Shown here piece after piece: positions 18,172 to 21,750 of a stretch of DNA of 64,000 nucleotides; positions within the stretch are counted from its first letter, which is position 1; every line of letters starts with the position of its first letter. The stretch covers positions 1,422 through 65,421 of the forward strand of contig CAWEQU010000008.1 in NCBI GenBank assembly GCA_963811305.1. Reading direction: 5' to 3'. A model generated the notes under the pieces. It saw only the letters and a program-made list of their open reading frames with translations. It did no database searches and was not told the origin of the DNA. The stretch is from an uncultured Chloroflexia bacterium. Lineage in GTDB: Bacteria; Chloroflexota; Chloroflexia; QHBQ01; JADMIH01. Both the position numbers and the translations under genes were made by a program.

Positions 18172-18269
18172 TGAATTTAATCTATTTTGGTGATGTGGCG
18201 CTCAGACAGCTATGCTATCATAGCACTGTTCGGGCATATCCCGACAACACAAAATGAGGAGTTTGCTTC

Positions 18270-20168
18270 ATGGACGAGTCATCGGACAAAAGCCTCTGGC
18301 GTGGTGCCAAGCCTGTACACCGCAGGCTGCGTGGATACGCCTTTGACCCAAGCCTCTCTGTCCAGCTGGACACAGCCGTCGTAAACCAGGTTATCTTCAA
18401 GGTTGACTGGGAAGATAATCTCGGCAAGGGGCCGGTAGGCGAATACCTCGAGGTCGTCGATTACGACCCTGCCAGCGACTGCTTTTATGAGCCGGTGTCT
18501 CTGAACCATCATTACGTACTGGCGCAGGATGGTCTCACCCCTTCCGAGGGGTCCCCCCAATTCCACCAGCAGATGGTGTACGCGGTAGCGATGACTACCA
18601 TCCAGAATTTTGAGAGCGCCCTCGGCAGGAAGGCTTTCTGGTCGCCGGGACGCCATAGGAGAGATAAATTCATCCAAAGGCTTCGAATATATCCACACGC
18701 GCTAAGGGAAGCGAACGCCTATTATAGCCCCGACAAGGTAGCGCTCCTCTTCGGCTATTTCCCTGCGTCCTCAGACAACTCAGAGACACATCACCCAGGG
18801 GGTGTAGTCTTTACCTGCTTATCTCACGACATTATCGCGCATGAGACCACCCATGCTCTTCTCGATGGGATGCACCGACGGTTCAACGAGCCAAATCACC
18901 CCGACGCTCTTGCGTTCCATGAGGCATTCGCCGATATCGTAGCCCTTTTCCAGCATTTCAGCTTCCCGGAGGTCTTGCGCCACCAGATAGCCAAGAACCG
19001 GGGCGATCTCGCCAGCCAGAGCTTGCTCGGTGAGCTGGCGCAACAGTTTGGTGAGGCGATTGGAAACTATGGGGCTTTGCGCGATGCCATAGGCCGCGTC
19101 AATCCCAACACCAAGCAATGGGAGCCGCTTACCCCCGATCCACAAGCCTATAACGTCGTTATGGAGCCTCACCAGCGAGGCGCTATCCTTGTCGCTGCCG
19201 TATTTGACGCTTTTATCTCTATATACAAGAGCAGGGTAGCGGACCTGTTCCGCATCGCCACCAGCGGAACAGGCGTCTTGCCCGCGGGCGCGATCCACCC
19301 CGACCTCGTAAACAGGCTTGCCTCCGAAGCAGCCAAGAGCGCCCAACAGGTCCTCACAATGTGCATCCGCGCCCTTGATTATTGCCCCCCGGTGGATATC
19401 ACTTTCGGAGATTACTTGCGGGCGCTAATCACGGCGGACTCAGACCTCGTGCCATATGACGACCTGGGCTACAGGGTAGCTTTCATAGAGGCGTTCCGGC
19501 GACGCGGCATCTATCCAAGAGATGTGCGCACGCTTTCGATGGACAGCCTGCGCTGGCCCCAGGCGAAAGGCTACAGCAATATCTTCGAGCCAATTGCCGA
19601 AGAGCTACGTGAATTCATGGAGAACGCCAGGTATCTAACTGACCGCCATGAATCTTTCAACGCTACAAGAGAAATGCGAATCGAGCTTCACAAGCTGATC
19701 CAGCAGGAAGTTCTGGTTGGACATTGGAGAGGACTGGAGGAGCTAACCGGACTAGCACTTAAGCCAGACACGAAAATGGTGGGCTTAGATCTCGATGAGC
19801 AGGGGATACCTGTTTTCGAGATTCATTCCTTGAGGTCAGCGCAACGGGTCGGCCCAGATGGGAACGCCCTGAATCAAATCATAATCTCAATTACCCAAAG
19901 CAGAAAGTTTCTGCTCGATCCGGCCTCCCCAACGGGTGGGTCTAAGTTCTTCTTCCGGGGCGGCTGTACGCTAATCCTCGACCTTAATAACCTTGACCTG
20001 CGCTACCGTATCGTTAAGAGCATCGATGACGATGAACGTTTAAACGCGCAAGCACAGTACAGGCAAGAGGTGCGCGGGAACTCGCTATATGCGACGTACT
20101 TTGATGAAAACGATCCAGATGAGCCATTTGCCATCATGCACCGTGAATCCGGGAGCGGAATGGCATGA
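18270..20168 (+). CDS. Cytoplasmic gluzincin (thermolysin-like HExxH...E) metallopeptidase, 632 aa
   Basis: HETTHALLDGMHRRFNEPNHPDALAFHEAFADI is an HExxH followed 22 residues later by ExxxD, as in M4 enzymes. AGGAG lies 7 nt before the ATG. I see no signal peptide or TM segment. Confidence 0.7.
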   Translation: MDESSDKSLWRGAKPVHRRLRGYAFDPSLSVQLDTAVVNQVIFKVDWEDNLGKGPVGEYLEVVDYDPASDCFYEPVSLNHHYVLAQDGLTPSEGSPQFHQQMVYAVAMTTIQNFESALGRKAFWSPGRHRRDKFIQRLRIYPHALREANAYYSPDKVALLFGYFPASSDNSETHHPGGVVFTCLSHDIIAHETTHALLDGMHRRFNEPNHPDALAFHEAFADIVALFQHFSFPEVLRHQIAKNRGDLASQSLLGELAQQFGEAIGNYGALRDAIGRVNPNTKQWEPLTPDPQAYNVVMEPHQRGAILVAAVFDAFISIYKSRVADLFRIATSGTGVLPAGAIHPDLVNRLASEAAKSAQQVLTMCIRALDYCPPVDITFGDYLRALITADSDLVPYDDLGYRVAFIEAFRRRGIYPRDVRTLSMDSLRWPQAKGYSNIFEPIAEELREFMENARYLTDRHESFNATREMRIELHKLIQQEVLVGHWRGLEELTGLALKPDTKMVGLDLDEQGIPVFEIHSLRSAQRVGPDGNALNQIIISITQSRKFLLDPASPTGGSKFFFRGGCTLILDLNNLDLRYRIVKSIDDDERLNAQAQYRQEVRGNSLYATYFDENDPDEPFAIMHRESGSGMA

Positions 20169-20221
20169 GCATATGTGTGAGCGCACAGGCGCAAGTATGC
20201 TGGTAATAGGAGGAGAAGACA

Positions 20222-21724
20222 TTGGAAGTGAAAGTCCGCATGTACCGCCAGGGGCTGGGGGATTGCTTTCTCCTCAGTTTCAAGGGGAAGAAGAAACCCT
20301 TCCACATGCTTATTGATTGCGGAGTCCTGATGGGCACCAAAGATGCCAAGGAGAAGATGGAGGAAGTTGTAGCAAGTATCGCGGAAGTTACGGGTGGGAA
20401 ACTTGACCTGCTCGTAGCCACGCACCAGCACTGGGACCATCTCTCAGGCTTTGTCCATGCACAGCAGAAATTCACCGACGATATAAAGGTGGCCCAGGTG
20501 TGGCTCGCCTGGACCGAAGACCCCTCCAACAGGCTGGCCCAGGAGTTGAGGAAGGGGCGGGAAGAAAAATTGTCTGCTCTCTATTCAGCTCTGCAGCGGC
20601 TGGAACGGATCAAGTCCCAGGATGACCGCTCACAACTCCGCATGGACCAACGGGTGACCGCCATCAAGTCAATGCTGAGCTTCTTCGGGGACCTCCCTGG
20701 TCAGGATAATGGTAACGGAGACGCGCTCGCTGTGGGCGAAGCCATGTCTGCGGCGCAGGGTAGCAATACAACGCAAGCAGCATTGGATTTTCTCTGCAAG
20801 CTGCCGGGAGCGAAAATAAAGTATTGCACGCCGGGCGAAGACCCCCTACCTCTCGACGGCATCGAAGGCGTTCGCATTTACGTGCTGGGACCCCCCGAAG
20901 ACAGGACCCTGATCAAGAAGAGCGACCCAACCAAGAAAGGTAAAGAGGTGTACGAGGAGTTCTCAAGCCTCACGCTGGAAGATACTTTCCGTGCCGCCGT
21001 CGATGACGACCCGACGAGTGTCCGCAGACGCGAATTATGCTTCCCCTTCGATGAGGACTATAAAATCTCTCGTGCCAAGGCCAGGAGCGATCTATTTTTC
21101 AAGCAGTATTACGGCTTCGATGGGGATGATGAAAACAAAGATGACTGGAGGAGAATAGATAACGACTGGTTGGGCGTCACGGGACAGCTGGCCCTTTCCC
21201 TGGACAACGACACCAATAACACCAGCCTGGCCCTTGCTATCGAGTTCGTCGAAAGTGGCGATGTTTTCCTCTTCCCCGCCGACGCACAGGTAGACAACTG
21301 GCTATCGTGGGAGAAGTTATCATGGAAGGTGGCAAGCAAAGGAGGTAACGAAACCAAGACAGTGACTTCCAAGGACCTGCTGGAACGCGCCATCCTCTAC
21401 AAGGTAGGGCATCACGGCAGCCATAATGCTACGTTGCGAGAGAAAGGGCTGGAGATGATGACAAGTCAGCACTTGATCGCGCTCATCCCTGTAAATCGTA
21501 AGATGACGAAGGACAGGGAGTGGAACATGCCTTTTCCTCCTTTGCTGAAGAGGCTGAGGGAGAAGACGCGTGGCCGGGTGATCCTCGCCGACGAGGATGA
21601 GCTTCCCGACCGCACAAATGAAAAGAATCTGGTTACCCTGAGTGAAGCCGAGTGGGAAGAATTTACACATCCAAGCAAGACGAAGGTGCTGCCACTATAT
21701 GTGGAGCTTACCTTCAAGCAGTAA
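20222..21724 (+). CDS. MBL-fold metallo-hydrolase, ComEC-like motif set, 500 aa
   Basis: The motifs are THQHWDH (HxHxDH), NNTSLAL, FPADAQ and KVGHHGSHNA, the last resembling the HHGS motif of the ComEC beta-lactamase domain. A long charged insert separates the two halves of the fold. The TTG start lies 8 nt after GGAGG. Confidence 0.75.
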   Translation: MEVKVRMYRQGLGDCFLLSFKGKKKPFHMLIDCGVLMGTKDAKEKMEEVVASIAEVTGGKLDLLVATHQHWDHLSGFVHAQQKFTDDIKVAQVWLAWTEDPSNRLAQELRKGREEKLSALYSALQRLERIKSQDDRSQLRMDQRVTAIKSMLSFFGDLPGQDNGNGDALAVGEAMSAAQGSNTTQAALDFLCKLPGAKIKYCTPGEDPLPLDGIEGVRIYVLGPPEDRTLIKKSDPTKKGKEVYEEFSSLTLEDTFRAAVDDDPTSVRRRELCFPFDEDYKISRAKARSDLFFKQYYGFDGDDENKDDWRRIDNDWLGVTGQLALSLDNDTNNTSLALAIEFVESGDVFLFPADAQVDNWLSWEKLSWKVASKGGNETKTVTSKDLLERAILYKVGHHGSHNATLREKGLEMMTSQHLIALIPVNRKMTKDREWNMPFPPLLKRLREKTRGRVILADEDELPDRTNEKNLVTLSEAEWEEFTHPSKTKVLPLYVELTFKQ

Positions 21725-21750
21725 CTCAAGGATGGGGAGGCTGGAAAAGG

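Follow-up and report, generated by a model that had tools for sequence, protein, structure and literature searches.

That bacterial immunity repeatedly relies on nucleases licensed by proteases, a logic with a parallel in the caspase-activated deoxyribonuclease (DNase) of animals, was recognised only in 2025. Tuck et al. (Science 2025; PMC12799240) found that the metallo-beta-lactamase (MBL) encoded beside trypsin-fused Hachiman, AVAST (Avs1/2/4), Lamassu and DRT proteins is a proenzyme, the active site of which is blocked by disordered loops, and that the partner protease removes these loops; in the caspase–nuclease ‘Canu’ (CanABC) loci of the same study, the protease gene comes first and the nuclease gene follows it. 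Evans et al. (bioRxiv 2025; PMC12642450) found that cleavage of the MBL by a protease at two sites gives a Zn-dependent nuclease of double-stranded DNA, and described two disordered gating loops in the MBL pro-nucleases, with co-evolution and active-site-blocking insertions as hallmarks. They also reported that an alpha/beta-hydrolase is a similar zymogen and that effector-less defence proteases exist, and raised stress-response roles for protease–effector modules. The operonic protease classes reported for MBL pro-nucleases in these two studies are trypsin, caspase/CHAT and subtilase only, and the published trees contain an uncharacterised ‘subtilase-associated’ MBL clade (PMC12799240, PMC12642450). 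Here we analyse a pair of genes, encoding a putative zinc metallopeptidase (gene 1) and a putative MBL nuclease (gene 2), from an uncultured Chloroflexia bacterium. The pair lies in a 64,000-nucleotide stretch of contig CAWEQU010000008.1 (assembly GCA_963811305.1), which we refer to as the window.

The pair resembles the protease-gated MBL modules in its ComEC-like MBL, in the constant adjacency of the protease, in co-evolution and predicted disordered insertions, in its occurrence in defence islands and on mobile elements, and in sensors that are exchanged as modules. The gene order, with the protease first and the nuclease 3′ of it, is that of Canu. It differs from them in four respects. The constant partner is an HExxH zinc metallopeptidase without a Pfam model, rather than a trypsin, caspase or subtilase; in most members, that in the window among them, a sensor NTPase is neither fused to the pair nor placed beside it; gene 2 has a larger insertion (~235 residues, with three loops); and extra effectors (patatin, phospholipase D (PLD), alpha/beta-hydrolase) are often coupled to the pair. 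A metallopeptidase partner for such an MBL is not mentioned in PMC12799240, PMC12642450, the trypsin–MBL preprint or the conflict-system papers of the Aravind laboratory, and further full-text searches found none. MBL nucleases gated by a protease are known by now, so the finding does not open a new category. Its novelty lies in an unreported class of protease, in the very large size of a family that has no annotation, and in a minimal architecture that lacks a sensor. We consider it likely that the pair serves in conflict or defence. An initial annotation, made from the letters of the window, had already proposed such a role, which gains support from profile matches to defence MBLs, from plasmid islands, from gene fusions and from the 2025 literature.

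The two genes form an obligate unit

One genome per GTDB species was scanned for relatives of gene 1. At least 570 were confirmed among the matched stretches, and the best 80 of these, from more than 10 phyla, make up our locus sample. The first point to note is the constancy of the pairing. A gene-2 homologue lies directly downstream of gene 1 on the same strand in 79 of the 80 loci, usually after a gap of 30–200 nt, and in the sole exception 47 bp of contig are left. The same is true of plasmids: of the 29 that carry a gene-2 homologue (E ≤ 1e-10), every one has gene 1 as well, and in 26 the two adjoin, the other three being Rhizobium sp. T-strain records of identical length in which gene 1 lies 1.6–3.1 kb off. 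The only interrupted pair was found in locus L055 (1803–11363), where a fusion of an S8 subtilase to gene 1 is separated from the MBL gene by a gene for a 1233-aa CarboxypepD_reg (Ig-like) repeat protein. Gene 1 and gene 2 are an obligate unit, and the neighbour relationship seen in the window is conserved across genomes.

The pairing is mirrored in the divergence of the two proteins. Across 50 loci the distance matrices of gene 1 and gene 2 correlate with r = 0.72, a value reached in none of 2000 Mantel permutations and to which shared species history contributes; on these sequence distances, the correlation is what co-inheritance and co-evolution would predict. No third gene is universally linked to the pair in the 80 loci, nor do these contain a conserved precursor-peptide gene, transporter or metabolic neighbour, so that the pair does not map to a known metabolic operon.

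The family is large and unevenly spread. More than 8000 database proteins match gene 1, and an exhaustive profile search gave at least 5192 clusters at 50% identity, with 1616 clusters at E ≤ 1e-30. The best 120 matches, typically 60–70% identical, come from Acidobacteriota, Chloroflexota, Gemmatimonadota, Actinomycetota and other phyla, and all are named ‘hypothetical’. Most copies of the pair are chromosomal and the distribution is patchy; gene-1 homologues occur in 64 plasmid records, 35 of them conjugative. In phage genomes gene-1 homologues are essentially absent, with one partial match, at 46.8% identity over 69% of the query, in MT836994.1 (4633–5880), a contig of 9.5 kb from human faeces that is labelled ‘Bacteriophage sp.’ and has no annotation. 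Either this contig is a bacterial fragment that was misclassified, or the gene is, rarely, carried by phage.

Two apparent gene 1–gene 2 fusions did not survive closer reading. A 1317-aa ‘fusion’ in locus L004 is an artefact of the open reading frame (ORF) calling, since gene 1 lies there in a different reading frame. Gene-1 homologues of ~1000–1100 aa gave nothing by BLASTP against gene 2 and are tandem duplications of gene 1. No trypsin-type gated nuclease with the N-terminus of gene 2 was found in the fetched loci beyond the gene-2 family itself.

Gene 2 resembles the nuclease domain of ComEC and carries a large insertion

The initial annotation had compared gene 2 with the DNA-processing domain of ComEC because of its HxHxDH and KVGHHGSHNA motifs, and this resemblance is borne out. 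In a Foldseek search with the AlphaFold2 (AF2) model (predicted local distance difference test score (pLDDT) 80, predicted template modelling score (pTM) 0.82), the best match was the beta-lactamase-like nuclease domain of ComEC (9ic4; E = 2e-8, TM-score 0.72 on the target), followed by Pce/CbpE and the IntS11/CPSF nucleases. The full motif stretches run T67-HQHWDH73 and K394-VGHHGSHNA403. The MBL metal-ligand motifs are retained throughout, D32, H68, H70, D72, H73, D354 and H397/H398 being invariant in 38 homologues. Because of the match to 9ic4, we infer nuclease chemistry for gene 2. In common with ComEC/Rec2 it has the fold, the HxHxDH motif and the ‘HHGS’ motif; in contrast to ComEC/Rec2 it has no competence membrane domain, OB fold or transmembrane (TM) segment (the Kyte–Doolittle maximum is 1.27, and there is no Pfam match to the Competence/ComEC membrane or OB domains), and it has a large insertion and an ever-present protease partner.

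At the level of sequence profiles gene 2 matches defence MBLs best. The best PADLOC matches are the Lamassu ‘LmuA’ MBL (PDLC03854, 3e-17), RTasMBL, which is associated with defence reverse transcriptases (5e-8), and Avs1a of AVAST type 1 (1e-6); these are the very MBLs that accompany trypsin in Lamassu, DRT and AVAST. NCBIfam gives Avs1a at 34.5 bits (cut-off 420) and 6A-MBL_enzyme at 23.9 bits (E = 2e-5, cut-off 220), with no significant match to the beta-lactamase or lactonase equivalog models, and Pfam Lactamase_B matches the N-terminal part only, at 25.7 bits against a cut-off of 22.7. Gene 2 falls below the Avs1a cut-off of AVAST type 1, and the pair in the window has no STAND NTPase partner. 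It belongs to the same broad ComEC-like group as the effector of the 6A-MBL system; regulation there is ubiquitin-like, whereas in our pair it would be proteolytic, and the window contains no E2/E1/JAB partner. Indeed, neither a STAND gene nor an E2/E1/JAB gene flanks the pair in the ORF list or by Pfam.

The insertion had been noticed as a ~200-residue, highly charged insert; its presence is confirmed, at ~235 residues (100–335), but its charge is not exceptional, the charged fraction being 0.33 against 0.26–0.30 in the core. It is partly structured and contains the conserved blocks VYVLGPPED, PFD and WRRIDxDW. It also contains three low-pLDDT loops, which fall where an alignment of 50 genomes has many indels and little conservation. 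Loop 1 is preceded by a conserved F154-F-G and contains, in the alignment, a weakly conserved LG-A-G motif; on the AF2 model it is a candidate gating loop and cleavage site. Loop 2, which holds F256, invariant in 38 homologues, is by the same modelling a candidate second gating loop. Loop 3 precedes the WRRIDxDW block.

Gene 1 is a predicted cytoplasmic thermolysin-like metallopeptidase

Gene 1 carries HETTH followed, 22 residues after H195, by E218 of a HEAFAD motif, the gluzincin arrangement that the initial annotation had pointed out. H191, E192, H195, H217, E218 and D222, together with EPHxRG (299–304), are invariant in 34 aligned homologues, and the extended motif HExxH...HE[AS]F[AS]D is retained in 265 of 269 family members, all S8 fusions included. 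The AF2 model (pTM 0.76, pLDDT 68.5) is confident over residues ~96–600 and poor over the conserved N-terminal 95 residues; with this poor N-terminus, its sole credible match in the PDB by Foldseek is the M4 protease vibriolysin MCP-02 (3nqz_B), at a probability of 0.99, E = 0.04, 12% identity and TM-scores of 0.27 (query) and 0.52 (target).

By sequence, gene 1 is linked to family M4 only marginally. Gene 1 has no match in Pfam (no family at E ≤ 1), PADLOC, NCBIfam or, by phmmer, among PDB sequences. In particular there is no match to Peptidase_M4 or its C-terminal domain M4_C even at E ≤ 1, and none with divergent homologues. In a profile comparison, 1npc (Bacillus cereus neutral protease) aligned marginally to the HExxH...E region (E = 0.84), and one distant homologue matched the NCBIfam thermolysin model at E = 0.033. 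A divergent homologue is named ‘peptidase M4’ by RefSeq, and that protein has no Pfam or NCBIfam match. By motif and predicted fold gene 1 is thus a thermolysin-like gluzincin, but since the profile link to M4 is marginal it is not a demonstrable member of Peptidase_M4.

The comparison with M4 enzymes (MEROPS/Pfam; 3nqz, 1npc) shows a common HExxH, then a Glu on the next helix. Unlike the secreted pre-pro M4 enzymes, gene 1 is predicted to be cytoplasmic: no signal peptide or TM segment was found (the Kyte–Doolittle 19-mer maximum is 1.47, and 0.84 in the first 30 windows), and no FTP or PepSY propeptide was matched by Pfam. The absence of all three had been read correctly at the outset, and gene 1 is not a routine secreted protease. 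It has in addition an extra conserved N-terminal region (15–95) and a variable C-terminal region of ~200 residues, and the spacing from His to Glu is longer. In thermolysin this spacing is 20 positions (H146, E166); in gene 1 it is 23. The catalytic region was originally thought to be followed by some 300 unassigned residues; the conserved core reaches residue ~430, which leaves about 200. AF2 predicts for these a helical segment, a four-stranded beta domain (517–583) and a tail, with no structural match by Foldseek, and the region is a candidate for sensing, regulation or substrate docking.

Fusions, duplications and additional genes

We examined 149 gene-1 cluster representatives for fused domains. 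Gene 1 stands alone in about 86 of these, and is free of S8 in more than 65 of the 80 loci. An S8 subtilase is fused to its N-terminus in 50 of the 149 clusters (about one third), a form absent from the window; rarer partners are an alpha/beta-hydrolase (6), an nSTAND1 NTPase (1) and a TPR-S sensor (1), and one family protein also has a C-terminal GDPD domain. In the S8 fusions the C-terminal 630 residues, which lack a Pfam model, are the metallopeptidase module. Since the same MBL lies downstream, the S8-fused forms (loci L019, L027, L065 and L055, and plasmid pCMU01) plausibly correspond, on sequence, to the published ‘subtilase’ clade. The S8-less pairs would be invisible to a search for Pfam-annotated proteases.

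Other genes are added upstream rather than fused. A gene for a patatin-like phospholipase lies immediately 5′ of gene 1, apparently in the same operon, in 15 of the 80 loci and also on rhizobial and agrobacterial plasmids. The upstream position is taken by a PLD-like gene in B. quebecense and, in Hymenobacter, by an SMC/RecF-like ABC ATPase gene operonic with the gene-1 homologue. On a plasmid of H. volaticus (L083:6598–8967) the gene for a 789-aa SMC/RecF/Rad50-like ABC ATPase ends 16 bp before the gene-1 homologue. On Hymenobacter plasmids this protein may serve as a dedicated sensor. Downstream in the same locus we observed genes for a JAB/MPN protein, a WYL regulator and another MBL.

Duplication has also occurred within the family. 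In tandem gene-1 proteins of ~900–1200 aa (P0004, P0006, P0009, P0024, P0098, P0241) the first copy has kept EPHxRG and lost HExxH, and from its sequence is likely to be a pseudo-protease domain; in P0005, P0242 and P0302 both HExxH sites are kept.

A distant subfamily was seen on plasmid pRL1 of Rhizobium leguminosarum Ta1k (L090:2894–10050). Here a gene-1 relative of ~31% identity, which consists of the catalytic domain only and is annotated ‘serine protease’, lies between an S1/P1 nuclease gene and a gene for a divergent MBL ‘metallohydrolase’ (Avs1a-like, 1.7e-9), with Hachiman adjoining. This suggests that the metallopeptidase–MBL theme extends beyond the gene-1 family analysed here.

The pair occurs in defence islands

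On annotated plasmids of cultured strains, the pair lies in defence islands. In the conjugative plasmid pRle248a, a patatin–gene 1–MBL unit is preceded by DarT-macro, ImmA/helix-turn-helix (HTH) and CBASS cyclase genes and followed by Hachiman (DUF1837 and helicase). The same unit stands beside Hachiman and a restriction endonuclease gene in pAtH25_79a, and in pColt5.8d between CBASS with SAVED and ImmA/HTH on one side and AAA and HNH genes on the other. In pRgalIE4872c the pair, without patatin, lies between multiubiquitin/ThiF and ClpP genes and a DUF2235 gene, and in pCMU01 of Methylobacterium extorquens CM4 the S8–gene 1 fusion and its MBL are placed between SIR2 genes and an IS5 element. 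Further plasmid contexts include insertion sequence elements, VapC and CHAT proteins.

The 6A-MBL anti-phage system adjoins patatin–gene 1–gene 2 units in four chromosomal loci (L047, L061, L071, L072), the hosts being Burkholderiales, Hymenobacter, Flavobacterium and Flavisolibacter. In L047 (14481–17947) both of its components, the MBL enzyme and the E2–E1–JAB protein ‘Cap2_3’, clear the thresholds set by NCBIfam, 220 and 320 bits, with 421 and 543 bits, respectively. An extra ComEC/Avs1a-like MBL (cluster 7) recurs in L045, L061, L072 and L079. Patatin, 6A-MBL systems and other MBL genes are the only recurrent neighbours of the pair in the 80 loci. A PADLOC/Pfam census of 236 flanking ORFs gave, among the matches listed, Septu, MADS, Mokosh-like and a strong gated-nuclease-type MBL.

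A model for the module, and its alternatives

We propose that the module is a self-contained conflict system, most likely anti-phage and of the abortive-infection type. We infer that gene 1 cleaves gene 2, that a DNase is the product, that a cue triggers the cleavage and that phage defence is the outcome. In this scheme gene 2 would be held inactive by its internal insertion, the disordered loops gating the active site. Gene 1, as its dedicated cytoplasmic partner, would act on a cue of infection or stress and cut the gating loops, upon which gene 2 would become a Zn-dependent DNase, destroy DNA and so stop the infected cell. The central step, that gene 1 cuts the loops and unleashes the DNase, is the one we favour on balance, by analogy with the described systems and from the pairing, the co-evolution and the anatomy. 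More speculatively, the cuts may fall at or close to F154–F155 and F256, since thermolysin-like enzymes prefer a hydrophobic residue at P1′. The probable reader of the cue in the two-gene form is the variable C-terminal stretch of ~200 residues in gene 1; elsewhere this task would probably fall to STAND, TPR-S or ABC-ATPase sensors that are fused to gene 1 or encoded next to it. In many genomes the protease module would also be coupled to latent patatin or PLD phospholipases, or to a fused alpha/beta-hydrolase or S8 protease. The unusually high conservation seen in gene 1's catalytic core suggests that the cue sensed is itself conserved and possibly host-derived.

If the model is true, prokaryotic immune signalling gains a new class of protease, thousands of ‘hypothetical’ proteins can be given a function and defined at the level of Pfam, the published trees need a new reading of their ‘subtilase’ clade, and the sensing of infection by a protease that has no NTPase can be studied in a minimal two-gene system. 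The pair would be a large additional branch of protease-licensed nucleases, for which the counts given above are 5192 or more clusters, 570 or more species genomes and 64 plasmids; experimentally amenable strains that carry it include R. leguminosarum 248, A. tumefaciens and M. extorquens CM4. A more far-reaching version is possible but doubtful: that gene 1 is a fourth class of protease activating immune executioners, combining NTPase-free sensing, through its variable C-terminal domain, with proteolysis and acting as a hub that licenses several latent effectors, the MBL in every case and in many genomes also patatin or PLD phospholipases, an alpha/beta-hydrolase or an S8 protease, and that the ‘subtilase’ clade is really metallopeptidase-associated, its S8 fusions forming a two-step cascade.

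Several observations weigh against the model. The matches of gene 2 to models of defence MBLs cover mainly its N-terminal ~110 residues and score far below the curated cut-offs. The flanks of the pair in the window are housekeeping genes and its GC content at third codon positions (GC3) is ordinary there. On the chromosomes of metagenome-assembled genomes the neighbours within three genes on either side are heterogeneous, with scattered PADLOC matches only (raw counts). The identity of gene 1 across phyla, 55–70%, is unusually high for a defence gene and atypical for a direct sensor of fast-evolving phage components. Finally, S8 might be the activator of the nuclease in the S8-fused forms, which make up about one third of the clusters.

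The last point leads to the main alternative, an unlikely one, in which the module does serve defence and gene 1 is not the activator of the MBL: the two would be parallel effectors, or gene 1 would degrade proteins of the phage or host and gene 2 would be under some other control, or gene 1 would be mainly a sensor or scaffold and another protease, such as S8, would do the cutting. The frequency of the N-terminal S8 fusions (50 of 149) fits this, as do the ‘subtilase-associated’ MBL clade already in the literature and the existence of effector-less defence proteases (PMC12642450), and the tandem gene-1 proteins, in which one copy is usually without HExxH, indicate that the fold can serve non-catalytic roles. 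Yet the stand-alone form without S8 is the majority (~86 of 149 clusters, more than 65 of 80 loci) and the MBL is always there; the zinc site is kept in every S8 fusion; in S8-less pairs the disordered insertions of the MBL are kept; and the two genes co-evolve. We think it decidedly unlikely that the pair is instead a stress-activated suicide or addiction module, or a toxin pair that stabilises plasmids or islands, and is not primarily directed against phage. It is common on large conjugative plasmids, toxin–antitoxin genes lie nearby (VapC, DarTG, ImmA/IrrE-HTH), the very high conservation suggests a conserved, host-derived cue, and Evans et al. raise stress roles for modules of this kind (PMC12642450); against this, what recurs beside it are systems of phage defence and not genes for plasmid maintenance, the closest characterised relatives of the MBL act in phage defence, and most copies are chromosomal. 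An ordinary cellular role, in DNA uptake or turnover, in the processing of peptides or natural products, or as a secreted protease with a beta-lactamase or lactonase, is very improbable. The housekeeping flanks and normal GC3 in the window and the fold match to ComEC, a competence protein, would suit it. It is opposed by the lack of a signal peptide or TM segment and of the ComEC membrane and OB domains, by the 80 loci, which show no conserved precursor-peptide, transporter or metabolic neighbour, by the patchy, plasmid-borne distribution, and by the lack of a significant beta-lactamase or lactonase equivalog match.

Features of the locus and neighbouring genes

The positions of the features are collected in Table 1. 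The two genes run in the same direction with a gap of 53 nt, and each has a strong Shine–Dalgarno site, as first described. Scans for promoters and terminators over 17900–22000 gave nothing better than shuffled sequence.

Table 1. Features of the gene pair and its border, in window coordinates (residue numbers refer to the encoded protein)
Feature	Position	Strand	Basis
Shine–Dalgarno site GAGGAG, gene 1	18256–18261	+	8 nt before ATG; direct sequence reading
Gene 1 (632 aa, ATG start), cytoplasmic thermolysin-like (gluzincin) zinc metallopeptidase, family without annotation	18270–20168	+	ORF call, motif, fold match
Conserved catalytic core of gene 1, residues 96–430	18555–19559	+	Confident part of AF2 model; mean top-residue frequency 0.74–0.85 in 50 loci
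HETTH zinc-binding/catalytic motif (H191, E192, H195)	18840–18854	+	Invariant in 34 homologues
HEAFAD motif (H217–D222); E218 third zinc ligand, gluzincin type	18918–18935	+	H217, E218, F220 and D222 invariant
Variable C-terminal region of gene 1, residues 431–632	19560–20165	+	Top-residue frequency 0.33–0.53; AF2 secondary structure
Shine–Dalgarno site AGGAGGAG, gene 2	20208–20215	+	6 nt before TTG; direct sequence reading
Gene 2 (500 aa, TTG start), ComEC-like MBL-fold hydrolase, predicted latent (gated) Zn-dependent DNase	20222–21724	+	ORF call, profiles, AF2, Foldseek
HxHxDH metal-binding motif (H68, H70, D72, H73)	20423–20440	+	Invariant in 38 homologues
Insertion of ~235 residues (100–335) in MBL fold	20519–21226	+	AF2: helical hairpin, small sheet, three disordered loops
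Loop 1, residues 156–183, disordered, indel-rich	20687–20770	+	pLDDT 39–43; gap-rich columns
Loop 2, residues 246–283, low-confidence, variable	20957–21070	+	pLDDT 43–50; insert columns 262, 285–289
Loop 3, residues 298–312, short, disordered, acidic	21113–21157	+	pLDDT <50 at 302–312; gaps 298–303
GHHGSHN motif (H397, H398), ComEC-type distal metal-ligand motif	21407–21427	+	Invariant; aligns with ‘vpHHGS’ of 9ic4
5′-truncated FAA-hydrolase-family gene abutting the pair	17540–18127	−	Pfam match to profile positions 82–213 of 214 only

The codon composition of the pair is ordinary. GC3 is 0.637 for gene 1 and 0.667 for gene 2, against 0.681 ± 0.056 for 53 ORFs of the window (z = −0.8 and −0.3), and the impression that the pair uses more A/T-rich codons than its neighbours is not sustained. 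The total GC content is slightly low by comparison with the same ORFs (z about −1.4 and −1.8, respectively) because of the amino acid composition. As GC3 is normal for both genes, recent horizontal transfer, judged by composition, was rejected.

On its 3′ side the pair is convergent with etfA/etfB, as the initial annotation stated for etfA, which is identified by Pfam ETF_alpha. On its 5′ side Pfam identifies an FAA-hydrolase-family gene, a glutathione S-transferase (GST) gene and a creatininase gene. The FAA-hydrolase-family ORF lacks ~80 N-terminal positions of its domain, and in-frame stop codons lie just upstream of it; this truncation, exactly at the border of the pair, is possibly the scar of an insertion or rearrangement. 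The GST gene, which is maiA-like (16898–17539), comes next in the same operon.

Two further groups of genes were noted farther along the window. A Phd/YefM antitoxin gene (26806–27081, +) is followed by an ORF of 247 aa (27161–27904, +) that has the lowest GC content of the region (0.503), a GC3 z of −2.5 and no Pfam match; it could encode a new toxin that partners the antitoxin, or be of foreign origin. Just before these, a Roadblock/LC7 (MglB-like) gene, identified by Pfam, adjoins a small MglA-like ORF (25613–26140 and 26226–26801, both on the + strand), which by eye looks like an MglA-type Ras-like GTPase.

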